Below are positions 3,481-49,718 of a DNA stretch of 64,000 bases, piece after piece. Each line of letters starts with the position of its first letter. Positions within the stretch are counted from its first letter, which is position 1. Below the pieces are notes generated by a model, which did no database searches, had not been told where the DNA came from, and saw only the letters and a list, made by a program, of their open reading frames with translations. The position numbers and the translations under genes were made by a program. Location: the sequence record OR544956. The stretch is one strand, 5' to 3'. The stretch comes from Escherichia phage vB_EcoM_EP57.

Positions 3481-5325
3481 TTAACCACCAGTGTTAGATT
3501 GTCCACTTAGAGTTGAAAGAGATAAACGTTGGAAAATGCTATTTCCGCTATTTTGAATTCTTGCATCAAGAATATTTCCAAACTCTGAAGAAGGGCTGAT
3601 CGTAACTTTGATAAGATCACTTGGTATTGCTACCGTATTCTCAACAACAGGTTGATTACGAGCCAAACTTACATTAGGTGTATATGCCGACTGACGTAAA
3701 TCTTCCAGAGGATTACCAAATCCAAAAGCACGTGTCCTTGTTTGTTCTCCTCTCCACATACGACCAATATCTTGTGTATCAATACCTGTTAAATTGTACA
3801 ACCAATCTGCTACAGGATTGCTGTCTCCACTTTGCGTTGCCTCGTATGCTTTTTGTGCTAAAGATTTATTAGGATCTGTGTCTTTAACGTTATCCAACCA
3901 AGAATCATCTTTAGGTAAGGCTTTCACAAAACCCTCTAAGAAGTGGTTCTGCATACCTTGACCTACAAGCTGAACTGTTGCAGCAAAACGAGTAAACTCT
4001 TTAGAAGCATCTATTTGTTCTTGAGTTAATGTTGCACCTGTTCTTTGAAGCATTTTCAATACTTCATTATACCCTTCGCCGTTTTTACTAAACATACGTT
4101 GGTAGTGCATAAGGTCATCACCAAGGTTTTCAAGAAGTCGCCCGATTTGAGCAGAGTTCATACCTCGACGCTCACCTTCATTAACAGTAGCCTGAATAAA
4201 AGCTAAAGGATCGTTCTGTAAAGGTTTAAGCTGTTCTGGATTCCATCCAAACAAGTTCATAATGTCATTTATGCCATTATCACCGCCTTTCCACTTCCCT
4301 TCTTTCTCATTCCATTTTGAGGCTAAAACTGTATTACCAAGACGTTCACGAACGTCTTTAATATTATCTATTGACTTAATAATATTTGCAGAGTCTACAC
4401 CGTTCTGTTCACCCCAAGCTGTCATCGCTAAAATAGAGTTGGCGTTTGTCTGAACGTTTTCAGCGCCACGACTTACAAGTTTAATTCTTTCGTTAGTATT
4501 CATCAACGTGTTACCAACTACAGAACCACCTGCAAACAGCCCAGCACCTATTAAAGAGGATGCAATCATGCGTGGATTAAGACCTGCTGCACCTTCTTTT
4601 AATTGTCCATATCGACGATCACGATCACGTTTTTGTTGAGCTAATTCACGCTTACGGTTGCGTTCTATATCTCTAAGTTCACGATTTCGCATACGTATAC
4701 GCATTTTAGCTTCTGCTTCTAGCTCTCTACGAATACGGCGACGACCGCGAACCTCGTCTTCTATTTCAGCATTCTTTTCACGATGAGATCTGCGTAAGGC
4801 ATCTAACTGGTGAGCAAGAGCTTGGTTCATACGTTGAAGAGTTATTTCACCCTTTTTGTATTGCTCTACAGCTTTACCCATAACGTCCCTAGCTTCTTGC
4901 ATAGCCCCAGGACTGGCTTTACTAAATGCTCTTGCTCTGTAGTTAAAGTTCTGCAAACGAAGATTACCTAAATCTTCCCTACGTGCTGCTGCTTTAGCTT
5001 CGCGTTCAGCAGCTTTACGAGCTTTTTCTTCTTCTCTTCCTTGCGGGGTTTTAGGAGTTCTAGGTCTACCAGATCCGCCTACAGGAGCACCCGCTCCAGC
5101 GGGAGTAGGTGCTCGCATAGGTTTTTGACTTTGAGTTTGAGCTTTCTTAAGTTCACGCTCAATCTCTTTCATTTGTTGTCTAAACTTGGTCATGTTCATA
5201 GTGGGTTGCATTTTATTTGCAAACTTCTGAACACTCAACACGGCATCTTTTGCTTCCTTGAGACTGTTCTTGTCCACCTTAAACGTAACCACGTTACTAA
5301 TTTTGGAGGCGTTAATTTCTAACAA
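3481..5325 (-). CDS. tail tape measure protein
   Basis: 614 aa; long charged coiled-coil region; Gly-rich hydrophobic segment (IASSLIGAGLFAGGSVVG); directly downstream of a frameshifted chaperone pair. Confidence 0.55.
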   Translation of the reverse strand: MLEINASKISNVVTFKVDKNSLKEAKDAVLSVQKFANKMQPTMNMTKFRQQMKEIERELKKAQTQSQKPMRAPTPAGAGAPVGGSGRPRTPKTPQGREEEKARKAAEREAKAAARREDLGNLRLQNFNYRARAFSKASPGAMQEARDVMGKAVEQYKKGEITLQRMNQALAHQLDALRRSHREKNAEIEDEVRGRRRIRRELEAEAKMRIRMRNRELRDIERNRKRELAQQKRDRDRRYGQLKEGAAGLNPRMIASSLIGAGLFAGGSVVGNTLMNTNERIKLVSRGAENVQTNANSILAMTAWGEQNGVDSANIIKSIDNIKDVRERLGNTVLASKWNEKEGKWKGGDNGINDIMNLFGWNPEQLKPLQNDPLAFIQATVNEGERRGMNSAQIGRLLENLGDDLMHYQRMFSKNGEGYNEVLKMLQRTGATLTQEQIDASKEFTRFAATVQLVGQGMQNHFLEGFVKALPKDDSWLDNVKDTDPNKSLAQKAYEATQSGDSNPVADWLYNLTGIDTQDIGRMWRGEQTRTRAFGFGNPLEDLRQSAYTPNVSLARNQPVVENTVAIPSDLIKVTISPSSEFGNILDARIQNSGNSIFQRLSLSTLSGQSNTGG

Positions 5326-6139: not shown

Positions 6140-6591
6140 TTATTGAATTGTCAGAGCAGAGATTGAGTTAAGGGTGCTCAAACCTACACCAACTTCATTA
6201 CGCAGAAGACTTGCATCTTTAAGACCAATAACCCATTGGTTCTCTGTAATCATTTCGCCAATAGTATCTTCAGGCTGACTTTGAATCCATCCAATCGTGC
6301 TAATGTAATAGCCACGTGGGTCTTCCAAGTAAACACTGAACGCTACTTGACGAGTAGAATACATTGTTTGTGCATATGTTGCAAGCAAGACATTGTGAGT
6401 GTTCCCAAACGGTTACGACTCAAAGCTAGTGAAACGTCGCCATCAGTCCCTGAATAAGGGTTGATAATATCGTTAGATTTAGCAATAACGATTTTAGTAT
6501 CAGCCGCAAAACCCCACGGTTCCCAACCACCTAATGAAAGGATAACTTGAGATGGGTCGTAGGCCATTACGCCAGTAAGCATTTTATCCAT
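6140..6591 (-). CDS. tail tube protein-like gene, reading frame disrupted (ORFs 6343..6591 and 6140..6388)
   Basis: Two overlapping same-strand ORFs; second is in the -1 frame; RBS AAGAGGA before ATG at 6591; position between sheath-like and chaperone genes. Confidence 0.35.
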
Positions 6592-15258: not shown

Positions 15259-17334
15259 TTATCTTTTACGGACACTATACGGTTGGTGAAATCCGCTGTT
15301 CATTCTACTGTATCCTGTAGGAGCATTTGTTGTTGTAGGGATAGCTACTGCTTTGAAAGTATTCTCTTTTGACAGAGTATTAAAACAAGAGGCAGCAGCA
15401 TCGGGAATGTCATCTTTAATAGTGGCTGTAGATCTTTCACCATTGAAAGATTCCAATTCTTTATAAAAGTGGGTTAAAGTCTCCACATTAGGGAAAGAAT
15501 CTTCAACAATATAAACAAAACCGTTTTGACACGCACTACTAAAAGGCATGAAACGCTGAAGCTTTTTCTTGTTACCTGGCATAGCATCTGGTTTAACAAC
15601 AAAACCCTCTAGAATAAGTTTCTTTGCAGACTCTGTGTATTCTATTGTCCCAGCACCAGATGGGTCTTTAGGAAGCACTACTGTAACTTCTGGTCCATCA
15701 ATCTTACATTGATTTAGAATCAGGTTATCCCTTTCCCCAGGTAGTCTTCGAAACCTTCCGAAAATTTTACTTTTCTCATCCACAGCATCATAATCATAGT
15801 CGCCAAAGATGTAGATATTACCATCTTGGTCTTTACCCATTTTGACAGATGTTGTATAGTCTGGATAACGGTAAGTTTCTGTAGGAACTGAAACAGCTTT
15901 ATCCCATGCTCGCATTAGTTTAAGATTGTTAGGAACATCTTTATAAGATATTTTATGTAACCATTCACGTTGAAAGAAAGATTCTTTCTGGATACGTGCA
16001 AACCAACAACCGTCCAGAAGCTGTGCTCTTTTGATCGCTGTTTGTGATTTAAGCTGTGCTAAGTAATTAGGGTTAAGCCTAATGAGTTCTGGGTTATCAA
16101 ATATTGTCCCACCAATAAATACGAAAGTTTGTGGTTCAATAACAACTGTCTCCCCTGTATTAGGGTTTTCCATGAAACAGTTTTCTGGATATTTTTCTTT
16201 CAGTTCTTCAGGTGTGTCAGCAAAAACAGGTTCATCGTTAACAATGATGAAATATTTTTGTTTACCACACATATCTTCTCTAGGATAACCACCCTCATCA
16301 AGATAAGGTAACACCCAATTCAAAACCCAACTATCTGCGTCAGGGTTACATGTGCACAACATGAAACTTGTTTCTGACTCTGAACGCATACGTCCCAGAA
16401 GATAGAGCATTTCATATTGTGTGAAGTGGGTTAACTCGTCAAAACCTACCATTGAATACTGTGTACCCTGATGGTTTGTTTCTGCTGTTACGTTATCATT
16501 TTCCAAATGGTCAAATTTGAGGGTTCCGCCACCAGTGGCTTCAAAAATGATATCCATTGTACTTTCTTTTACGTGTGGTTGTAAAGGAAGATACAAACGT
16601 TTTGCTTCTGTAAACAGACCACCTGGTTTACGGTGAGCAGTGGTGTTCTTACGGAAAAGTATTCCACCAAACAAAGGGTCTTTGTAGGCGTATTTTAAAG
16701 CTTTCAGCAATAGCAGACGAGACTTGCCGCTATTCCCAGTAACGAAGCAGTGATCGCCACGTCTAAAGACAATATAGCTGCTTGGAGTCTCAAAACAATA
16801 TTTCTTATCATCTGTTGAAATAACCTCGTGTATTTTTAAGTAAGTGCTCTTTTTACCAGGTATGTTAAAAGGAACACGTTTACCGAATGGATTTTCTACA
16901 TAACCTTGCAGGGGTTTTCCTATTTGCTGTAATGCAATAAGATCTCCTACAAGAATCTCGAAATGTTTCTTTGATTTCTTTTTCTTATAGAATACAAAAC
17001 GGTGTTCCATACTAAGTTCTTGGAATAATCCTACACCATTTGTTATTCTGTATAGGTTATCTCCATTTAAATCGTATTCTACAAAATAAGGTGTTACCAA
17101 TTCTAAACGCTTATTCTTAGGATTGTATTGGTAAATATCCTCTCCCGAATATTCACTAATCTGCCTCCAACCATCTTTTGTAAGATATTCCGTTTCAGCA
17201 GAAACACATCCAGCGGCACCACCATAAATCATAACCTCTGGCATTAAATCCATTGCAAGAGTCTGTTTACCTGGTTGAGCCTTTACTTCAATATCTACTC
17301 CAGCTAAACTACCTGCTGCCTTTTTCTTTGCCAC
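15259..17334 (-). CDS. terL: terminase large subunit, intein-containing
   Basis: Walker A GAAGSGKS is restored when residues 43-201 are removed; Walker B MVGFDELT. Confidence 0.8.
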   Translation of the reverse strand: MAKKKAAGSLAGVDIEVKAQPGKQTLAMDLMPEVMIYGGAAGCVSAETEYLTKDGWRQISEYSGEDIYQYNPKNKRLELVTPYFVEYDLNGDNLYRITNGVGLFQELSMEHRFVFYKKKKSKKHFEILVGDLIALQQIGKPLQGYVENPFGKRVPFNIPGKKSTYLKIHEVISTDDKKYCFETPSSYIVFRRGDHCFVTGNSGKSRLLLLKALKYAYKDPLFGGILFRKNTTAHRKPGGLFTEAKRLYLPLQPHVKESTMDIIFEATGGGTLKFDHLENDNVTAETNHQGTQYSMVGFDELTHFTQYEMLYLLGRMRSESETSFMLCTCNPDADSWVLNWVLPYLDEGGYPREDMCGKQKYFIIVNDEPVFADTPEELKEKYPENCFMENPNTGETVVIEPQTFVFIGGTIFDNPELIRLNPNYLAQLKSQTAIKRAQLLDGCWFARIQKESFFQREWLHKISYKDVPNNLKLMRAWDKAVSVPTETYRYPDYTTSVKMGKDQDGNIYIFGDYDYDAVDEKSKIFGRFRRLPGERDNLILNQCKIDGPEVTVVLPKDPSGAGTIEYTESAKKLILEGFVVKPDAMPGNKKKLQRFMPFSSACQNGFVYIVEDSFPNVETLTHFYKELESFNGERSTATIKDDIPDAAASCFNTLSKENTFKAVAIPTTTNAPTGYSRMNSGFHQPYSVRKR
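16732..17208 (-). other. mini-intein (159 aa) inserted in the terminase P-loop
   Basis: Begins CVSAETEYLTKDGW (Hint block A), ends ...FVTGN followed by Ser; no endonuclease domain evident. Confidence 0.55.
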
Positions 17335-20717: not shown

Positions 20718-20792
20718 TGGTGGCCCTGGCTGGTTTCGATCCAGCTACCTATCGGTTATGAGCCGACAGCTCTCCCATTGAGCTACAGGGCC
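20718..20792 (-). tRNA. tRNA-Met or tRNA-Ile2 (anticodon CAT)
   Basis: Hand-folded; D-stem GCTC/GAGC; anticodon arm GTCGG-CTCATAA-CCGAT; T-loop ATCGAAA; CCA. Confidence 0.6.
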
Positions 20793-21038
20793 ATAAATGT
20801 GGTAACAGAGACGCTGACGATTGTAGAGAACCGCTACATTCTCTAAGACCAAGCCCAACTTTCAGCGTAAAAGTTCTTGAGCCGAGACTGTTCCTTTTCC
20901 TCTTTGGTAGCTAACCTCTGAAGAAGTAGTCTCTAACACTACCGCAGTGCAAGCCCCTCTTAACAAAAGTCAACGACACTGTTACCACACTTGATGAACG
21001 TATCCTAACATATGAAGGATACGTTTGTCAATAGTTAT

Positions 21039-21287
21039 TTAAGCATATTCTGCTACTTCTTCACTATCTTTCTTTTCCAGAAGAGCAACAACCAAAGCTT
21101 CTGCGTTAAAAGTATTAATTTCAAGATCCATCTCTCGCATCAGAGCCAAGAAATCAATAACTTTAACATCTTTAGTGATTACAATAGAAGTTGTACCATT
21201 GTTTTCAGATGTGTATTTTTCTGGATGGAAAAGAAAAACTGCATTGCCGTTACCATCTTCAAACACGTGTTTTTCTAATAGAGACAT
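21039..21287 (-). CDS. hypothetical protein
   Basis: ORF track 82 aa; first leftward gene block. Confidence 0.3.
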   Translation of the reverse strand: MSLLEKHVFEDGNGNAVFLFHPEKYTSENNGTTSIVITKDVKVIDFLALMREMDLEINTFNAEALVVALLEKKDSEEVAEYA

Positions 21288-21295
21288 TGTTCCTC

Positions 21296-21547
21296 CTAAT
21301 CTGTTAGTTGTTCGTCCTCTACCAAGTTTGACACGAGAACGTCTGTTATATATTGATGCTGATAAACCCTTTCGGGACTATCATCAAAAGCCAAACCTGT
21401 GCAAATAGAACAGAGGTCTGATTCCTTGATGACTCCATTTTTATCACGTCTGGAGTGGTTTGTCAAATGCCTATTACAAGCACGGCACCTAAAATAAAAG
21501 CTATTTTGCATATATCCTTCGAACCCCAAATGGGGAGTGATCGGCAT
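21296..21547 (-). CDS. hypothetical zinc-ribbon protein
   Basis: 83 aa with CRACN...CSIC cysteine pairs. Confidence 0.3.
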   Translation of the reverse strand: MPITPHLGFEGYMQNSFYFRCRACNRHLTNHSRRDKNGVIKESDLCSICTGLAFDDSPERVYQHQYITDVLVSNLVEDEQLTD

Positions 21548-21584
21548 CTCCTCACTTCTAGTTTAGCACGAAGGATATCTTAAG

Positions 21585-21782
21585 TCAACTAGGAATAATT
21601 TTATCCCTTTTGGTTTCATAACCAGTCCAATCTAAATCCTCCCAGCCTTCATCATCGTCTAACACATTGTCATCATCATAAGATGCAATGTTATAAATAG
21701 AACGTGGATTACAAGACATACAATCTTTAATAGGCACATGATGCCATTTGCACGGATTCTCACTAATCATTGCACACCTCAT
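21585..21782 (-). CDS. hypothetical protein
   Basis: 65 aa, Cys-rich N-terminus, acidic C-terminus. Confidence 0.3.
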   Translation of the reverse strand: MRCAMISENPCKWHHVPIKDCMSCNPRSIYNIASYDDDNVLDDDEGWEDLDWTGYETKRDKIIPS

Positions 21783-22192
21783 CTATAGATCAAGTATTAT
21801 TTATAATAATTTATTATTTTATTTTTAATTGATAGAAGTTGATCTGTACGTACCAGTTCTGATACACTGTACCTGTTTGTTAGATCTAATAATTATTTAT
21901 TATTAATATTTAATAATTATTAATCTAGTACGGAGTACAGTACTTGAGTACAGAGTACTACATCAACGACCTAAAACCTTAACTCGCTGCGCTCGTTAAT
22001 AGATTTCTAGGGTAACATACTTCGAACACAAAAGTCAAGAGTTTTATTAAAAATTATTTTCTGTGTGCAAAAACCTTGCTTAAACAGGTAGCAATAGTAT
22101 TAAGAGGCTGTAGAGCAAGTTTACTTACTAGGTAAGGTGATTTATCATCTTATATATAAAAAGTGCGTCAGAGACGCGTTTAGGAGGCTAGA

Positions 22193-22609: not shown

Positions 22610-23409
22610 GCAACTATCCAATTACAGGCGTAACCTATTCTTGTGTAGCAAAAGGTGGTTTATATACAGTAGTGGAATTTCCAAAACCTGCCGGAATATC
22701 TAAAGTGTTTGATCCTGTGGTTATCTATGAAGATCTTAGAACAGGTCAACGTTACTGGAGATTTGTGAATGACTTTTTAGATCGTATGGAGGTAGTAAGT
22801 GGCGAAAACACCGAAGAAGTTATCAAAGCCAACGTTACTAAGAAACCGAAAAACGAGGTTCTCAAAGTAGCCAAATCAGTTCCTAAGAAAGATAAATTTG
22901 ATACGGAGGCATTCGTCTTTGACACACCAATCGAGAAGATTGAAGAAGCGTTGCAACGTCTTGAGGAGCAGGAGGCAGATCCAATGGCTGAACCACTCGC
23001 TGAAGCAAAAAACATTGGTCGTTCCAATGAAACAACACCAGAAGAACAAGCTGAACTTGAAGCTTTTGCCAAATGGACAAAACAGTTAAAGAATGGCTAT
23101 TATAAAACAAAAGAAGAAGCTGAAAACCATGTTCCTTCCACACCAATGAAATGCCAGGATTATAAAGATTATCCTGAAAGGGTTGTGTTCCCTGGTTATG
23201 CACAATACAAACTGAACGGGTTACGTTCTATGATTAACATGAAAGGAGAGTGTTTATCAAAAGCTGGGGAAGTGTACAACCTGCCACCTCATTGGAAAGG
23301 TATTCCAAACTTTATTAGTGAAGTTGTTGGTCATCCTCTTGATGGTGAAGTGTTTGCTGGGTTAGGTGTCCTTAGTCTGCAACAAATTAACAGTGCTTGC
23401 AGTAGTTGA
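22606..23409 (+). CDS. ATP-dependent ligase-like nucleotidyltransferase, N-terminal part (frame-interrupted)
   Basis: Motif I-like KLNGLR and motif III-like HPLDGEVF near the C-terminus; ORF ends soon after. Confidence 0.4.
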   Translation: MSNYPITGVTYSCVAKGGLYTVVEFPKPAGISKVFDPVVIYEDLRTGQRYWRFVNDFLDRMEVVSGENTEEVIKANVTKKPKNEVLKVAKSVPKKDKFDTEAFVFDTPIEKIEEALQRLEEQEADPMAEPLAEAKNIGRSNETTPEEQAELEAFAKWTKQLKNGYYKTKEEAENHVPSTPMKCQDYKDYPERVVFPGYAQYKLNGLRSMINMKGECLSKAGEVYNLPPHWKGIPNFISEVVGHPLDGEVFAGLGVLSLQQINSACSS

Positions 23410-35521: not shown

Positions 35522-35814
35522 TGGCTGAAAAACTTATTTTTTGTCCTGTGTGCGGTGGGACTGGACAGATGGAAGTGGAAATTATGGTAACATTTCCTTG
35601 CCTGAATTGTCATGGTGAAGGACGAGTAGTAATCTTTGAAAAAGAAGAGGTGGAAGATGGAGAAGAGTATGTCCGTATTCCACGAGAATTAACAGATCAC
35701 ATTGCAGAAGCAATAGCTTTCGAAGCTAGATGTTGTGGAGGCATTGCTTACGATATTTATGAAGCAATTATTAAAGCTGCTCAAGAAGAGGAGGAGATGA
35801 AAAATGGGTATTGA
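35521..35814 (+). CDS. hypothetical zinc-ribbon protein
   Basis: CPVCGG...CLNCHG. Confidence 0.35.
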   Translation: MAEKLIFCPVCGGTGQMEVEIMVTFPCLNCHGEGRVVIFEKEEVEDGEEYVRIPRELTDHIAEAIAFEARCCGGIAYDIYEAIIKAAQEEEEMKNGY

Positions 35815-36130
35815 TATCGAATGGCGTATGTTACAGGGTGCACCTTTTAATAAGTGGGAAGAGGCTGTAGGAGAAGATCCTAGAATTGAAGAAGAATTTG
35901 ACGGAGATTTTAACTGGTTCTTACAAGAAGGTCTGGACTTAAGCCGCATCTCTCCTTTCTACGATGCGGATGAGTCTTATTGCATATATGGCCTTGATTT
36001 AGAAGGCGGAGAGGGAAGCATAGCTGTAGATCTTGAGCAATTGAATGAGAATGCAAAAGAAGCCTATGCAAAGCTACTTGAAAAATATAACATTAAAACG
36101 GAAACTATTATTTCTCAACATGTTTGGTAA
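35804..36130 (+). CDS. hypothetical protein
   Basis: ORF track 108 aa. Confidence 0.35.
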   Translation: MGIDIEWRMLQGAPFNKWEEAVGEDPRIEEEFDGDFNWFLQEGLDLSRISPFYDADESYCIYGLDLEGGEGSIAVDLEQLNENAKEAYAKLLEKYNIKTETIISQHVW

Positions 36131-36139
36131 GGAGAACTG

Positions 36140-37132
36140 ATGCGCTATCTGGTAACAGGTGGTCTTGGTTTTATTGGGAGTGCCGTGGTGCGCTCTCTTT
36201 GTCAAGATCCTAATAACGAAGTTTTTGTCGTTGATAAGATGGGCTATGCAGCAGATATTGAGAATGTAGGCGATATCACTCACGTTAAACTAAGCATAAC
36301 AGATTTGGCAAACGAAACCCAGGTCAAAAGTTTAGTAGTAGAGTGCAATCCTGACTTCATCATTCACTTAGCGGCAGAAAGTCATGTGGATAATTCTATC
36401 AAGAATCCACGAGTTTTCATCGACTCCAATATTATCGGTACATACAATTTATTGGAAGCTGCAAGGCTCCTCCCAAAAAATAAACTGAAGATGTTCGTAC
36501 ACGTCTCCACAGACGAAGTGTACGGCGATATGGCAGACTCTGGCGTTCCCTTTACCGAAAAGACAGCTTATGCCCCTTCAAGCCCGTACAGTGCGTCTAA
36601 GGCAGCATCTGACCATCTTGTGAAAGCTTGGCACCGCACCTACGATTTGCCTGTTGTGATAACCAACTGCTCCAATAACTTTGGGCCTTATCAACATCCA
36701 GAAAAGCTGATCCCAAAAATCATCACAAGTATCTTGACGAATAAAGAGATTCCGGTGTATGGTAAAGGCGACCAGGTGCGAGACTGGCTTTTTGTTGAGG
36801 ATCATGCGCGAGCTATTCTTCAAGTGGCAACAGGTGGAGAACCAGGTCAAACGTATAATGTTGGAACACGTAATCCCAAAACCAATATGGAGATCATCTA
36901 TATGGTTTGTGACTATATGGATACTGTACATCCAGAAGCAGTAACCTACCCTTCTTCCAACTTGATAACTTTTGTTGAAGATCGTAAAGGACATGACTTG
37001 CGTTATGAAATCAATCCTTCTAAGATAGAGTCTGAACTGGGCTGGAGTGCAAACTCTACATTTGAACAAGATCTCTACTCAACGATTGAATGGTACTTAA
37101 ACAACCCTCAATGGTGGAGTGAGAAAATTTAA
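36140..37132 (+). CDS. rmlB: dTDP-glucose 4,6-dehydratase
   Basis: [12 protein letters not shown]-binding motif; [20 protein letters not shown] catalytic block; followed by rmlA/C/D. Confidence 0.75.
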
Positions 37133-37140
37133 GGAGGGTT

Positions 37141-38019
37141 ATGAAAGGTATTATTTTGGCGGGAGGAAGTGGAACCCGCCTTCATCCGGTAACACGCAGT
37201 GTGAGCAAGCAATTGCTCCCTGTGTATGACAAACCCATGATCTACTACCCTTTATCGGTATTGATGTTGGCTGACATTAAGGATATTTTAATCATCACCA
37301 CACCAGGTGATCAGGAAGACTTTGAGTATCTTCTCGGAGATGGGTCTATGTTTGGGATAAAACTCACTTACGCAATCCAATCCGAGCCACGAGGTCTTGC
37401 GGAAGCTTTCATCATAGGTAAAGATTTTATCGGAGAAGACTCTGTTGCTCTTATTTTAGGTGACAACCTATTCTTCGGACAAAGCTTTGGTAAACTACTG
37501 ATTAACGCTAGTGAGATGGTAGATGTTTGGGGTGGAGCTTGTATCTTCGGGTATTTGGTGAAAGATCCTGAACGATTCGGTGTGGTTGAATTTGGGAGTA
37601 ATCGTCAAGCTATTTCTATTGAAGAGAAACCTGAAAATCCTAAATCAGATTATGCTGTCACAGGTTTGTATTTCTATGATAACTCTGTTATTCAACGTGC
37701 ATTAGAAGTAACCCCTTCCGCGCGTGGAGAACTGGAGATCACTGATATCAATCGCAGCTACCTAGAAGACAGCAAGTTACAAGTGGAAGTTCTCGGACGA
37801 GGATTTACTTGGCTTGACACAGGAACACACGCCAGTCTGATGGAAGCTGGTCAATTCGTGCAGACTATTGAGAACCGTCAAGGATTGAAGATTGCGTGCC
37901 TGGAAGAAATTGCTTTCAAAAAAGGGTGGATTTCTTTAGAGACTTTGGTGTATCATGGAAACTCACTGAAGAAAACAGAGTACGGGCAATACCTACTCAA
38001 ATTAGCGGAGAGAAAATGA
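37141..38019 (+). CDS. rmlA: glucose-1-phosphate thymidylyltransferase
   Basis: N-terminal [16 protein letters not shown]. Confidence 0.8.
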
Positions 38020-38582
38020 AAGTAGAAAAAACAAAAATTGAAGGTGCGGTAATTATCAAACCAGACGTTTATAAAGATGATCGTGGTTTCTTTCTAGAAA
38101 CATATAATGAACAAAAATACGAAGATATTATTGGTAGACAAACTTTCGTTCAAGATAACATGTCTAAATCAAACTTCGGTGTTTTGCGAGGAATGCACTT
38201 TCAAACAAATAACCCGCAAGGTAAGCTTGTTCGTTGTGTAAGTGGGGAAGTATTGGATTTCGCTGTAGATTTACGTAAAGATAGTCCAACTTACGGTGCT
38301 TGGGACGGTGTTGTTCTTCGTGCACGACACCATACGCAGTTTTGGCTTCCACCTGGTTTGGCACATGGTTTTATAGTTTTGAGTATGGATGCGATCTTTG
38401 AATACAAATGCACAACTCCATACGACCCTTCTAGTGAACAAAGTTTACGTTGGGATGATCCTGATATAGGGATCGATTGGGGCTTCGATATGATTTTTGA
38501 CGAAGGTTTTAAACCTATTCTATCAACAAAAGATGCAATGGCTAAATCTTTTCAACAGTTACGTAGCGAGGGTGTATGCTAA
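38016..38582 (+). CDS. rmlC: dTDP-4-dehydrorhamnose 3,5-epimerase
   Basis: 188 aa from ATG overlapping rmlA stop (ATGA); cupin-like sequence. Confidence 0.65.
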
Positions 38583-39418
38583 CATATCTGGTATTGGGCG
38601 GTAATGGACAACTGGGACAAGCTTTACGTAAAGTGGCTCCTTCAAATGTATCTTTAATTTATCCTAAAGAACGTGTAGATATTACAAATTTTGAAGCTGT
38701 GCGAAACGCTATTATTGAAGATTATGTAGATGGTGTTATTAATTGCGCCGCTTATACGGCTGTAGATAAAGCAGAACATGATTTTGCTACTGCTTTGGCT
38801 GTTAATGCGTATGGACCTGCAAATATTGCGGCAGTGTGCAGCAAACTTAAAATTGATTTTGTGCATATTTCTACAGACTATATTTTTAATTATTCTCATC
38901 CTATTTTTGAAGATACTACACCTAACCCAATAAACAATTATGGGTATACGAAAGAACTTGGTGAAAAAATGGTGCGAGGAGTTAACCCAAATGCATATAT
39001 TATTCGAACAGCCTCGGTATATAGCGAATTTGGAAATAACTTTCTAAAAACCATGTTGTCTCGCTATAATGATGGACAACGTGATTTTATTATTGTTGCT
39101 GATCAGTTCTCTTGTCCAACATATGCTCCAGATTTAGCAGAAGCTATTTTTGAAGTATTAAAAACAGGTTGGTCAAGGTCTGTTAAGACTTACCATTTTG
39201 CAGGAAGCCATCTTATTTCTTGGGCGGAGTTTGCGGAAAAAATCTTGACACAGATGCCAGAACCTGTTAAGATATCGGCGGTATCAGCTTCAACCTATAA
39301 TGCTCCAGCAGCACGTCCGGTGAAGTCACAACTAGTAACCAGTCACTATCTTACAAAATCAGATTTAAATAAAGGTATTGAACAGTCTTTAGCAGTATTA
39401 CTTAATAAGGAGAGGTAA
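38576..39418 (+). CDS. rmlD: dTDP-4-dehydrorhamnose reductase
   Basis: 280 aa; N-terminal LVLGGNGQLG; completes B-A-C-D order. Confidence 0.7.
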   Translation: MLTYLVLGGNGQLGQALRKVAPSNVSLIYPKERVDITNFEAVRNAIIEDYVDGVINCAAYTAVDKAEHDFATALAVNAYGPANIAAVCSKLKIDFVHISTDYIFNYSHPIFEDTTPNPINNYGYTKELGEKMVRGVNPNAYIIRTASVYSEFGNNFLKTMLSRYNDGQRDFIIVADQFSCPTYAPDLAEAIFEVLKTGWSRSVKTYHFAGSHLISWAEFAEKILTQMPEPVKISAVSASTYNAPAARPVKSQLVTSHYLTKSDLNKGIEQSLAVLLNKER

Positions 39419-39678
39419 TGGAATTTGTAATTTTTGGTAAACCTAACTGTCAATTTTGCGAAATGTCAAAACAACTATTAACCATGCGCAATAAACAGTT
39501 TGAATATTTAAGTCTTGATCAAGACTATGATTTAGAATCAATGACTAAAACAGTTGTTGATCTTACCGGAGTTCCTCCACGCACATTTCCACAAATTCTG
39601 TCCGAAGTGAACGGGGAGGTAACATACGTAGGCGGTTTTACCGAACTGCGTGATCTCATGGCTCAAATTGCGGAGTAA
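39418..39678 (+). CDS. glutaredoxin / NrdH-like redoxin
   Basis: 86 aa; CQFC active-site motif. Confidence 0.6.
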   Translation: MEFVIFGKPNCQFCEMSKQLLTMRNKQFEYLSLDQDYDLESMTKTVVDLTGVPPRTFPQILSEVNGEVTYVGGFTELRDLMAQIAE

Positions 39679-39840: not shown

Positions 39841-40341
39841 ATGGCTAAAGTAGTAGATGAGTTTGATATGCTACGAGTCGATGAAGGACTGAAGCTTACT
39901 GTTTATCAAGACCATCTTGGTTATTGGACAGTCGGCATAGGACACCTTCTGACTAAAATAAAAGATAAAGCAAAGGCTATTCAAATCTTAGATAATCTTC
40001 TTGGTCGTAAGACTAATGGAGTTATCACAGAAAAAGAAGCCCGTCAAATCTTTGCTGATGATGTTGCAAAAGTGAAGAGAGACATAAAAAACAGTGCTAT
40101 CTTATCACCAATCTATGATAAGGTTAGTGATACTCGTAAATTGGGAATAATCAACATGGTTTTCCAGTTGGGGTTAAAAGGTGCTGAAGGGTTTCAAAAT
40201 AGCTTGACTTTAATCAGCAATGCATATTATACTCAAGCAGGTAAAAACATGCGTAAAAGCCGATGGTATAGCCAGACGCCAAACCGTGCTGAACGAGTAA
40301 TTAAAGTTCTGACTTCTGGAACTTTAGATGCTTACAACTAA
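39841..40341 (+). CDS. endolysin, T4 e-type lysozyme
   Basis: Recognised from memory as T4 lysozyme-like across its length (MLRVDEGLKLTVYQD...TVGIGHLLTK...RWYSQTPNRA). Confidence 0.8.
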   Translation: MAKVVDEFDMLRVDEGLKLTVYQDHLGYWTVGIGHLLTKIKDKAKAIQILDNLLGRKTNGVITEKEARQIFADDVAKVKRDIKNSAILSPIYDKVSDTRKLGIINMVFQLGLKGAEGFQNSLTLISNAYYTQAGKNMRKSRWYSQTPNRAERVIKVLTSGTLDAYN

Positions 40342-40378
40342 TAAAGGGGCTTCGGCCCCTTCTAAAAGGAGTGCTACT

Positions 40379-41137
40379 ATGGGAAATAAAACCGCAGCTA
40401 AAACACAACGGCAGAAACTGGCTAATTCAGCAAAGATTGAAAGCCGTTATGCAGCAAAAGCGGTAGGTAATGACGATTACCGTTTAGATGAATTTATGCC
40501 TGAAGGGGACCAAAATAAGATTGTTCAAAGCATGATTTGGAATGATCTGACTGTTGTAAATGCTCCGGCAGGGACTGGTAAAACCTCTGTTGCTTTATGG
40601 AAAGCTTTGCAGATGCTTCGTTCAGGAGACTTCCGTAAACTACTTTTTATCAAGAACCCTACTGAAGTCGGAGATGACCAGATTGGTTTCTTGTCTGGAG
40701 ATAAAACAGATAAACTAGCAGCACACTATGAATCTACAAAACGTATTTTCCAGCAATTCATGACAGCCAACAAATTGGAAAACGACATTGGATCAGGTAA
40801 GATCGAATTGAATATTCCTAACTATTTGTTGGGGGCCACCCTGGATAATACAATCGTCATTATTGACGAAGCACAACTTATGTCAACAGAAACACTTAAA
40901 CTTCTTATTGAACGTGCAGGTATTAATACGCATGTTATTGTATTAGGCGATGTTCGCCAGACATATGCAATTAAAAAACGTAGCAATGGTCTGCATCAAA
41001 TTTTGGAACTTTTATATCCAGAAAATGAAGAAGGTGTTCGTGAGCCAATTGTAGATTTTATTGGATACGTTGAACTGACAACGGACGATAATAAACGTGG
41101 ACGTTTGTCTAAACTGATTACTGAAGTGTTTATTTAA
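40379..41137 (+). CDS. PhoH-like ATPase
   Basis: Walker A APAGTGKTS; ATG at 40379 after AAAGGAG. Confidence 0.6.
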   Translation: MGNKTAAKTQRQKLANSAKIESRYAAKAVGNDDYRLDEFMPEGDQNKIVQSMIWNDLTVVNAPAGTGKTSVALWKALQMLRSGDFRKLLFIKNPTEVGDDQIGFLSGDKTDKLAAHYESTKRIFQQFMTANKLENDIGSGKIELNIPNYLLGATLDNTIVIIDEAQLMSTETLKLLIERAGINTHVIVLGDVRQTYAIKKRSNGLHQILELLYPENEEGVREPIVDFIGYVELTTDDNKRGRLSKLITEVFI

Positions 41138-41169: not shown

Positions 41170-41673
41170 TTGATGGGTGTAGCAACAATAGCTATCGGAA
41201 GAAGCGGTATAGATGAGTGCTATCAAACGGGACTCGTAAAACCTAACGAATTTCGTCAAATTTGTGTAAACCATATTGAAAAAGAGATTGCTCTTACTTT
41301 AGAGAATATGACCCTCCGAGATAAACTGGAAATGTTTAAATGTTGGTGTCTAGGAGAAGATTGGCTTTTAAACCATTTTCAAGAACTTTCTGATAGTAAA
41401 GAAAGCTTGTTTGATTGTATAATAGGAATAGCTGGCTCCGATCCTAGCCTTCTGCACATAACAGAAGAAGAGGCGAAGTTACTGTTCTTAAGTAATTTGT
41501 TTAATAAGAAAGCACTGCTTGTTCGTGATTGCAGTGATCTTCTTAATAACCCGCTCGCAACGTCTGATCAAATTTTTGTTGACAAAGAGACACTACGTGC
41601 GATAGAATACATCTGCAAATATGTGAATGGTGGGAAAGCGGTTCTTAAAACATTAACAGAGGAGGAAGAATAG
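41170..41673 (+). CDS. hypothetical protein
   Basis: ORF track 167 aa. Confidence 0.35.
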   Translation: MMGVATIAIGRSGIDECYQTGLVKPNEFRQICVNHIEKEIALTLENMTLRDKLEMFKCWCLGEDWLLNHFQELSDSKESLFDCIIGIAGSDPSLLHITEEEAKLLFLSNLFNKKALLVRDCSDLLNNPLATSDQIFVDKETLRAIEYICKYVNGGKAVLKTLTEEEE

Positions 41674-42275
41674 TGACGACAATTATTGCAACCAAAAATA
41701 AGATTTTGAGTGATGGTAAGGTAACTTTTGGTGGACGTGTAGATTCTATTAATTTCAAAAAGGTCCGAAAAATTGGAGATTACCTTGTGGGTGGTGCTGG
41801 TCGTCTGACCTCCGTGCTTTCTTTCTTTCAATGGTTTGAACAAAATCTACAGTGCGAAGCAGCACGTGATGCTGTCCCTGGTTTGATGATTCACTCTGAT
41901 CCAGATAAAGAAGATGAAGAGTTTATTGCACTTGTTGTTCATCCAGACGGACGTATTTTCCTGCACGAAGGTAACAACCCAACACGTGCATATCCGATTG
42001 ATGAAGAATATTATGCGGTAGGAAGTGGGTCAGACTTTGCTTTAGCTGCTCTTGATGCAGGGGCAACACCAGAACAGGCTATGGAAGTAGCTAAAAAGCG
42101 AGATGCTTTTTCTGGTGGTGAAACATTTATTGAAGAACAAGACGAGATTATTGAATTAACAGACGATGATTTAGAAAACTTCTCCAAAGAAGAATTGATC
42201 AATCTTTTGAAATTCGGTAATCCCTACGGTGAAGAAGAACCTCGTAACGTGGCAGGGTTGCAGAAAACAACTTGA
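41673..42275 (+). CDS. HslV / proteasome beta-subunit-like Ntn-hydrolase peptidase
   Basis: N-terminal MTTII (Thr nucleophile after Met removal), GGAGR and AVGSGSDFALAA blocks; acidic C-terminal tail. Confidence 0.5.
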   Translation: MTTIIATKNKILSDGKVTFGGRVDSINFKKVRKIGDYLVGGAGRLTSVLSFFQWFEQNLQCEAARDAVPGLMIHSDPDKEDEEFIALVVHPDGRIFLHEGNNPTRAYPIDEEYYAVGSGSDFALAALDAGATPEQAMEVAKKRDAFSGGETFIEEQDEIIELTDDDLENFSKEELINLLKFGNPYGEEEPRNVAGLQKTT

Positions 42276-42382
42276 CTTCTAAATCTGAAAATATTAATCT
42301 CGTAAATGTGGCGGATTTCGAAGGAACCGCTATTTAACAAACTGCCCCTTCGGGGGCATTTCTTAAACATAGGAGATTAATA

Positions 42383-49321: not shown

Positions 49322-49718
49322 TATGTGTGGATATCTTTCAGAAAGTTATTTCAAAGTGACCCAGGAGGATTTAGAAAAAGCACGATTGAAACTGACAGCT
49401 ATTATTGAATACTCTAATACTGTTGATCACAGATTAAAGACTACTAAAGTATCTGTTCCTTGTTGGTTAGGTTTACGGCATAAAACAATGTCTCAGCATG
49501 ACCATGTTGTTCGAGAGATGCATGGTTGGTGTTGGTTTCACGATGTGGCTCTGCATTTTGGTTATATTACAGAAGAAGAGCATAGATTCTGTGAACTAAC
49601 ATATCGTATTCCAACCCTTTACGATTTAGATTTGTGGAAGAAAGCAAACGAGATTTTTCTTACAGAAAGTGATTGGCGTAAAGTTATGGCTTGTCTTGAA
49701 TGGAGGGGTAATGAGTAA
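49305..49718 (+). CDS. hypothetical protein
   Basis: ORF track 137 aa. Confidence 0.35.
   Translation: MKEVINMCGYLSESYFKVTQEDLEKARLKLTAIIEYSNTVDHRLKTTKVSVPCWLGLRHKTMSQHDHVVREMHGWCWFHDVALHFGYITEEEHRFCELTYRIPTLYDLDLWKKANEIFLTESDWRKVMACLEWRGNE

Follow-up and report, generated by a model that had tools for sequence, protein, structure and literature searches.

Among the described relatives of the proteasome, the PPH proteins of Caudovirales are about 140 amino acids long and possess neither a propeptide nor helix H2, and the RPC proteins, PPH relatives that also do without H2, carry a C-terminal extension and are reported only from proteobacterial genomes (Fuchs et al. 2021, PMC8665760). Here we compare with these systems, as well as with HslV and the bacterial proteasome homologue BPH, a gene located in a 64,000-nucleotide stretch of Escherichia phage vB_EcoM_EP57 (sequence record OR544956; the whole stretch is referred to as the window). 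The gene, an open reading frame (ORF) at positions 41673-42275 of the + strand, comprises 200 codons for a 200-residue protein that an earlier reading of the DNA, the original prediction, had taken for a phage-encoded HslV or proteasome-beta-like peptidase. Our analysis indicates that the protein is probably a PPH-type phage peptidase with the HslV/proteasome-beta Ntn-hydrolase fold, which has no propeptide, would likely assemble into ATPase-independent rings and is encoded by an accessory gene. From the sequence we infer that a PPH-type core is combined with an acidic loop at the position of H2 and an acidic C-terminal extension.

Reading frame, active site and fold

The features of the gene that bear on catalysis are the following; residue numbers of the phage protein count the initiator Met as 1.

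41673..42275, + strand: ORF of the putative PPH-type proteasome/HslV-like N-terminal-threonine peptidase, core at about residues 1-152 and acidic extension at 153-200
41659..41665, + strand: Shine-Dalgarno sequence GAGGAGG, 7 nt 5' of the GTG start, the same ribosome-binding site as in phage phi92
41676..41678, + strand: T2 (ACG codon), equivalent of Thr1, predicted to be N-terminal after removal of the initiator Met
41712..41714, + strand: D14, equivalent of Asp17 of HslV and the proteasome, invariant in the family
41760..41762, + strand: K30, equivalent of Lys33, invariant in the family
41790..41801, + strand: G40-G41-A42-G43, aligned with the oxyanion-hole turn G45-F46-A47-G48 of HslV
42021..42029, + strand: G117-S118-G119; S118 corresponds to Ser124 in HslV and Ser129 in the proteasome and does not vary in the family
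42102..42113, + strand: D144-A-F-S147 of the RDxxSGG motif, with D144 and S147 equivalent to proteasome Asp166 and Ser169, D144 invariant

The GTG is the first possible start codon after the upstream stop, which makes a propeptide impossible. The start codon is directly followed by Thr, the N-terminus reading MTTIIATKNK..., in line with the earlier description of a 200-residue protein that starts with MTTII, and phi92 has ATG at the same place behind the identical ribosome-binding site. Methionine aminopeptidase removes the initiator Met when Thr follows.

To assign catalytic residues, we used a family alignment of 27 homologues with 25-98% identity and a MAFFT alignment with E. coli HslV from MG1655. 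The original prediction had proposed a check of the Thr1, Lys33 and Gly45 equivalents: all are present, as T2, K30 and G40, and invariant across the 27 homologues, so that the absence of the catalytic Thr or Lys, named at the time as grounds for withdrawing the assignment, is not observed. The invariant columns include T2, T3, I4, D14, K30, G117-S118-G119 and D144, and the equivalents of Asp17, Lys33, the oxyanion Gly45/47, Ser129 and Asp166 are invariant or nearly so; the RDxxSGG motif reads KRDAFSGG in the phage protein. Judged from these alignments, the proteasome-type active site is intact and is not preceded by a propeptide.

Similarity to the proteasome superfamily was found at several levels. 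The protein matches the Pfam Proteasome family PF00227 with 26.2 bits (E = 7.5e-6, gathering score 22.4); 24 of the 27 family members also match PF00227. It matches PHROG 1040 'peptidase HslV family' over its whole length with 5.6e-60. In a phmmer search of the PDB sequences, Thermotoga maritima HslV came first (3.8e-9, 28% identity), followed by 11 more HslV sequences, a marginal 13th (3ty6, E = 0.0021) and then proteasome beta5; the profile built from the 27 homologues reached 2.9e-15 for its best PDB match, again an HslV. Similarity below significance, the other outcome that had been put forward as speaking against the assignment, is thus not what we see in Pfam, PHROG or PDB. The two HslV-like sequence blocks that had been pointed out are also present, GGAGR at residues 40-44 (VGGAGR at 39-44) and AVGSGSDFALAALDAG at residues 115-130.

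The AlphaFold2 monomer model computed on the alignment of 27 homologues has a mean pLDDT of 84.5 and a pTM of 0.72. A Foldseek search of the PDB with this model placed HslV, archaeal 20S beta subunits and BPH at the top, with E-values of 1e-10 to 1e-11 (among them 6e-11) and a probability of 1.00, and both the model and the matches display the alpha-beta-beta-alpha sandwich. In the single-sequence phmmer search, BPH (5ovs) remained non-significant at E = 0.57 and no Anbu was among the matches listed; as far as the model tells, the resemblance to BPH is structural only. Taken at the level of the superfamily, the proposed identity is borne out: the sequence and the Pfam, PHROG, PDB and Foldseek matches place the protein in the HslV/proteasome-beta Ntn-hydrolase superfamily (PF00227, MEROPS T1).

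Probable affinity with PPH and separation from HslV

The closest relatives outside the protein's own clade are of PPH size. A profile search of 1.84 billion cluster representatives yielded 67 clusters at or below 1e-30, mostly from an extended clade of about 165-350 residues. The matches listed from about 1e-33 to about 1e-25 were mostly 137-156 residues long, aligned from residue 1 and scored about 107-131 bits, compared with only 50-60 bits for HslV chains in the PDB against the same profile. These relatives of about 140 residues are metagenomic. They have in common a shorter first hairpin, a missing H2 and a link between H3 and H4 that is 9 residues shorter; in all three places E. coli HslV is different. 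The 137-156-residue size class thus comprises the strongest relatives outside the clade of the phage protein and shares its deletions relative to HslV: compared with E. coli HslV, the phage protein has 3-4 residues fewer in the first hairpin and 9 fewer in the H3-H4 link. The putative PPH-type classification is made because the proteins of about 140 residues outscore HslV and share the insertions and deletions that separate the phage protein from HslV. It agrees with the tailed-phage context, the lack of both H2 and a propeptide and the compact group I core.

Two further features set the protein apart.

41874..41924, + strand: proline-containing acidic loop VPGLMIHSDPDKEDEEF, residues 68-84, in place of HslV helix H2 (the HslU-docking surface)
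42129..42272, + strand: acidic C-terminal extension, consisting of a conserved two-helix segment and a variable disordered tail

HslV-specific tests all gave negative results. With the NCBIfam HslV equivalog models NF003964 (cut-off 137) and TIGR03692 (cut-off 157.75) the protein reached 32.7 and 31.9 bits, more than 100 bits too low in both cases, and the control, E. coli HslV, scored 302 and 288 bits. In the AlphaFold2 model a single helix at residues 45-67 is followed by coil at 68-84 (pLDDT 71-81), so that the pair of helices H1 and H2 is not found. Lys28 of HslV, which we take to be the salt-bridge partner of the HslU C-terminal carboxylate in the HslUV structures, corresponds to S25, and this position is occupied by Ser, Thr or Gln and never by Lys in the 27 homologues. 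The pocket of HslV for the HslU C-terminal tail includes the H1/H2 residues Phe54, Phe57, Ala79, Lys80 and Gln114 (PMC6429459). Phe57 alone is retained in the phage protein; Phe54, Ala79, Lys80 and Gln114 are replaced by Leu, His, Ser and Pro, and positions 79 and 80 map into the non-helical loop that takes the place of H2. Because the equivalog cut-offs are failed, H2 and Lys28 are lost and proteins of PPH size are closer, the protein is not an HslV orthologue. The labels 'HslV' and 'ATP-dependent protease subunit' in many phage records therefore overstate what is known, as every HslV-specific test failed and no ATPase partner was found.

These results also weigh on the possibility of a hybrid protease, in which the phage protein would be a true HslV substitute on host HslU (ClpY) hexamers and would redirect ATP-dependent proteolysis to substrates of the phage's choice or titrate HslU off host HslV. 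Such a role would be in keeping with the solved relatives, the best of which by sequence are HslVs, with a host, E. coli, that has hslVU although no phage HslU was found, and with the retention of HslV Arg35 as R32 in the close family. We nevertheless consider it unlikely, given the scores of both equivalog models, the changes at Lys28, in the pocket and at H2, and the occurrence of the family in phages of Caulobacter, Rhizobium and Vibrio, whose hosts are very different.

Proposed function and candidate partner genes

For the PPH-type peptidase we propose the following course of events. Host methionine aminopeptidase, by its established activity, would expose Thr1, which by analogy with HslV and the 20S beta subunits would act as nucleophile and general base partner. 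Sequence and model together suggest that ring-shaped homo-oligomers most likely form, and that these would most likely need no dedicated AAA+ unfoldase to cleave peptides or unfolded proteins. Cleavage independent of an unfoldase is proposed because no HslU is encoded, because the docking surface formed by H2 and Lys28 is replaced, and because the acidic loop sits at the place of the acidic pore loop of BPH. Partners or substrates would most likely be recruited by the acidic tail, which faces outward and contains conserved amphipathic helices, and tail and loop together may have a recruiting or gating role. The gene is expected to act as the end of an early or middle unit on the nucleotide-metabolism side, which runs from lysozyme through PhoH and ORF167 to the peptidase and a terminator.

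Several points weigh against this proposal. The protein is 200 residues long in the window and 230 in its native form, with a core of about 152, as compared with about 140 for PPH, and PPH and RPC were set beside it by description and not by reference sequences (for PPH, WP_042125023.1). We found no experimental study in the literature on the activity, oligomeric state or substrate of a phage proteasome homologue or PPH. ATPase independence is argued from the absence of a partner and from lost docking features in the sequence, and ring assembly from a model of the monomer. Finally, the peptidase may have functional partners in its conserved neighbours ORF167 and PhoH, the latter an ATPase.

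These neighbours and the boundaries of the unit are as follows.

40328..41137, + strand: PhoH-like P-loop ATPase (PF02562, 1.2e-36), two genes 5' of the peptidase
41170..41673, + strand: ORF167 (phrog_14834), an all-alpha protein whose gene appears coupled to the peptidase gene
41671..41675, + strand: TAGTG, in which the ORF167 stop codon shares one base with the GTG start of the peptidase
42343..42366, + strand: intrinsic-terminator-like hairpin TGCCCCTTCGGGGGCA (42343-42358) and T-rich run, directly 3' of the native stop

The overlap of one base between the ORF167 stop and the GTG indicates that the two genes are translationally coupled. The terminator-like hairpin lies right behind the native stop, which makes the peptidase gene appear to be the final cistron of its co-directional transcription unit. 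The unit is located on the nucleotide-metabolism side of the genome, distant from the head and tail genes, a position unlike that of a prohead protease. A sigma70-like promoter, TTGACA-18-TAGAAT at 41579-41608 (11 of 12 matches), was considered and rejected; it falls within the 3' end of ORF167, about 65 nt 5' of the peptidase start, and is probably a chance match because it is not conserved in phi92 and sigma70-like sites were no commoner in the promoter scan than in shuffled sequence. A short way 5' of the peptidase region, at about 35600-39420, lies a complete dTDP-rhamnose pathway with dTDP-glucose 4,6-dehydratase-like, glucose-1-phosphate thymidylyltransferase, 3,5-epimerase and reductase genes, followed by glutaredoxin and a T4-type lysozyme; the pathway is annotated in relatives and is unusual cargo for a phage.

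The statement that the window holds no HslU-like partner proved correct, as tblastn with E. coli HslU and the phage AAA protein as queries returned only matches with E > 7. The original prediction had also proposed a search of the rest of the genome. In Escherichia phage tuntematon, no HslU-type ATPase is annotated at positions 1-134,570 of 150,473 bp; the annotation reading did not cover the last ~16 kb, most of which lies inside the tblastn-negative window, as the ~14.6 kb past window position 49390. One AAA protein did emerge, gp054 (see below). Among phage HslU homologues, none of the 30 records listed came from this subfamily, out of 153 records in all with 4 Escherichia records uninspected; those listed were from jumbo phages of Erwinia and Salmonella, from short records of Listeria, Enterococcus and Staphylococcus, and from Salmonella contigs present as contamination.

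An alternative is that the peptidase works with an ATPase of the phage, either the PhoH-like protein, perhaps via ORF167, or gp054. One argument is gene order: lysozyme, PhoH, ORF167 and peptidase follow each other in the subfamily Stephanstirmvirinae and in metagenomic relatives with a peptidase of about 47-54% identity and an ORF167 homologue recognized with hhalign probabilities of 99.6-99.8%, and PhoH also precedes the peptidase (~35% identical) in phages of Shewanella, Vibrio and Aeromonas, though not in those of Caulobacter or Rhizobium. The apparent coupling of ORF167 points in the same direction, as does phage VEcB (NC_052663, 21552-21962; P0065), in which a single deletion hit parts of all three genes. 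However, the whole region is syntenic in these phages, and linkage is hence no proof of a functional link; the model of ORF167, a helical bundle with a pLDDT of 90.9, had no informative structural match. The other candidate, gp054 of tuntematon, is a 378-residue single-domain AAA protein (20770-21909, phrog_2376) encoded outside the window, which passes Pfam AAA (PF00004) with 29.9 bits against a threshold of 21.2. As a dedicated unfoldase it was rejected: its family is common among phages that infect Gram-positive bacteria, and no such phage is among the top organisms of the peptidase's matches; its gene lies about 45 kb from that of the peptidase, and its pore-loop position reads Y-T-D instead of aromatic-hydrophobic-Gly. 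The gp054 gene adjoins an endonuclease gene, and the protein has weak similarity to Rix7, p97 and the D2 domain of Afg2. Overall, dependence on a phage ATPase appears improbable to us.

In VEcB, the reading frame of PhoH runs through residues ~1-113 and continues without a frameshift at peptidase residue ~63. The two parts meet at an 'AA' microhomology, and the PhoH C-terminus, ORF167 and Thr1 are lost; the phage was isolated as viable. Because this deletion phage is viable, the peptidase module is accessory under laboratory conditions and not essential. The deletion amounts to a ready-made knock-out of the whole PhoH-ORF167-peptidase module, and together with the gene arrangement it offers handles for testing function. 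Phage Ro121c4YLVW (NC_052654) was considered as a second natural knock-out and discarded, as its 230-residue ORF with GTG start is intact (locus L012, 1374-2066). Its RefSeq peptidase begins at an internal ATG (Met72, 159 residues) and thereby loses Thr1, which is an error of annotation and not a mutation.

The protein might also not be a protease in vivo, and instead perform other Ntn chemistry, as a connectase-like ligase or transpeptidase or as an amidase, or serve as an idle scaffold or decoy with a functional acidic tail. For BPH and several other proteasome homologues proteolysis has not been demonstrated, and connectase is a ligase (PMC8665760); the tail has a conserved helix motif, and distant homologues have extra domains. 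On the other hand, the full catalytic set, including the equivalents of Ser129, Asp166 and Ser169, is invariant over deep divergence, which argues for selection on proteasome-type catalysis, and the model contains no connectase-like insertion, making this explanation more doubtful still than a role alongside an ATPase.

A more speculative extension of the PPH-type reading, to which we attach little probability, is that the extended clade represents a stand-alone, ATPase-independent viral mini-proteasome, whose acidic tails, possibly together with ORF167 and PhoH, would capture specific basic or nucleic-acid-binding host proteins for destruction during takeover or counter-defence. If true, the phage would encode a module for targeted degradation for which no example has yet been described in bacteria.

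The acidic tail, the sequence record and known relatives

The acidic nature of the C-terminal extension, noted earlier, holds up: the last 48 residues contain 14 Asp or Glu and 4 Lys or Arg, with a pI of 4.05. A segment at residues 161-181, LTDDDLENFSKEELINLLKFG, is conserved across the extended clade, and DSSP assigns helices at 164-168 and 172-181 of the AlphaFold2 model; the tail beyond LTDDDLENFSKEELINLLKFG is variable, acidic and modelled as disordered. No Pfam match at E <= 0.01 was obtained for the C-terminal extensions of the 27 homologues, Rho_N being seen below threshold in Aeromonas gp206 alone. Some metagenomic members of the extended clade (P0061, P0062, P0064 and P0070; L014, 3893-4945) extend further at the C-terminus by a Trp-rich domain of about 60-100 residues, with the pattern ...W.NTG..P...W.W...W[RK]L and no Pfam match. 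The presence of this extra domain in some members suggests that the tail is a swappable targeting module.

In the window the end of the tail is altered by a deletion.

42256..42257, + strand: junction of a 28-bp deletion, missing CAACGAGGCGGATACTGAAGAAAAATAT, a frameshift relative to close relatives
42257..42337, + strand: what is left of the gene's native 3' end, now out of frame, with the native TAA stop at 42335-42337

As a result, the protein ends in ...AGLQKTT* in place of ...AGNEADTEEKYVAENNLTSKSENINLVNVADFEGTAI*, 6 residues replacing 36 native ones of the 230-residue peptidase; the catalytic core and the conserved tail helices are spared. All 25 relatives listed span 3129 bases against the 3101-base query, showing that the 28 bp are present, none of 64 close relatives aligned without them, and the exact 200-residue product had no match in public assemblies. 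The truncation is most likely an artefact of the sequence record and not biology, because it is one of about 19 deletions private to the window, some of them in essential genes, with no insertions. That the gene is instead a decaying copy, its function abolished in the source of the window by the frameshifted tail, seems very unlikely: although the deletion is unique to the window and the gene is dispensable in VEcB, the lost part is the poorly conserved, predicted-disordered end, core and tail helices are intact, and the deletions elsewhere, which include a terminase start codon and a virion frameshift, indicate an artefact.

In a comparison of the whole window with tuntematon (~99.3% identity), about 19 deletions and no insertions are seen in the window; the deletions measure 2-151 bp apart from one of 4044 bp, and several are not multiples of 3. 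They are located at 3881, 6386, 8683, 8806, 17333, 20203, 21780, 22100, 22463, 22529, 22831, 22998, 23399, 24815, 27309, 28281, 35662, 42256 and 43852. At 17333 the gene for the terminase large subunit loses its ATG through a 6-bp deletion, and at 6386 the loss of 28 bp puts a virion structural gene out of frame; at both loci the missing bases are present in every relative listed. The record looks riddled with deletions, owing to an assembly defect or to editing of the sequence, and truncated ORFs in the window need caution. The 4,044-bp block absent at 22998/22999 corresponds to tuntematon 103899-107944 (gp274-gp262) and includes genes for a transposase-like protein, an HNH endonuclease and a phosphoesterase; unlike the small deletions, its absence could be genuine mobile-element variation.

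By sequence, the window is Phapecoctavirus (phAPEC8-like, Stephanstirmvirinae): in the peptidase region it shares 99.0% identity with tuntematon and 98.5-98.9% with about 60 further genomes of the genus. RefSeq names the protein 'peptidase HslV family' in tuntematon (JR325_gp231) and phAPEC8, other depositors 'ATP-dependent protease subunit', and phi92 gp058 is annotated as 'putative 20S proteasome'. Relatives were detected by tblastn in 239 phage records, including phages of Escherichia, Vibrio, Caulobacter, Aeromonas and Rhizobium, and in BFVD the fold recurs in 50 or more viral structure clusters. Proteasome-like peptidases are thus common in large phages, and the gene itself is ordinary, being already known and annotated in dozens of near-identical E. 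coli phages; what is new for the window is the probable artefact that clips the tail. Aeromonas phage 4L372XY has two adjacent proteasome-like genes, gp205 and gp206 (L002, 3432-3983 and 4001-4828), encoding 183 residues with a weak PF00227 match (E = 0.013) and 275 residues with a sub-threshold Rho_N-like C-terminus (E = 0.0066), possibly a two-subunit phage proteasome-like system.

Set against known systems, the protein compares as follows. The annotated orthologues of Phapecoctavirus (230 residues in tuntematon) are 97.5% identical and have the same neighbours and an intact tail, whereas the copy in the window ends early; that of Justusliebigvirus (phi92, 217 residues) is about 73% identical, again with the same neighbours and an intact tail. 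HslV (ClpQ, MEROPS T1B) has the same fold and the residues Thr1, Asp17, Lys33, Gly45 and Ser124, is also made without a propeptide in E. coli and provides the best-scoring solved structure, that of T. maritima, but the phage protein differs in having no HslU partner gene, in its RDxxSGG motif, which is proteasome-like, and in its acidic C-terminal extension. BPH (PDB 5OVS), among the top five structural matches, is likewise a group I protein for which no unfoldase is known, and its presumed pore is lined by an acidic loop; unlike the phage protein, BPH retains H2, and it is bacterial and not viral. RPC resembles the phage protein, by description only, in having a PPH-like core without H2 and a C-terminal addition, and differs in being proteobacterial. 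Like PPH, the protein is encoded by a phage, begins with MTTI without a propeptide, lacks H2 and carries the catalytic triad of the proteasome together with the oxyanion Gly. It departs from PPH in an extra acidic loop at the site of H2, about 12-15 residues long, and in the acidic C-terminal extension of 50-80 residues with its conserved helix pair.

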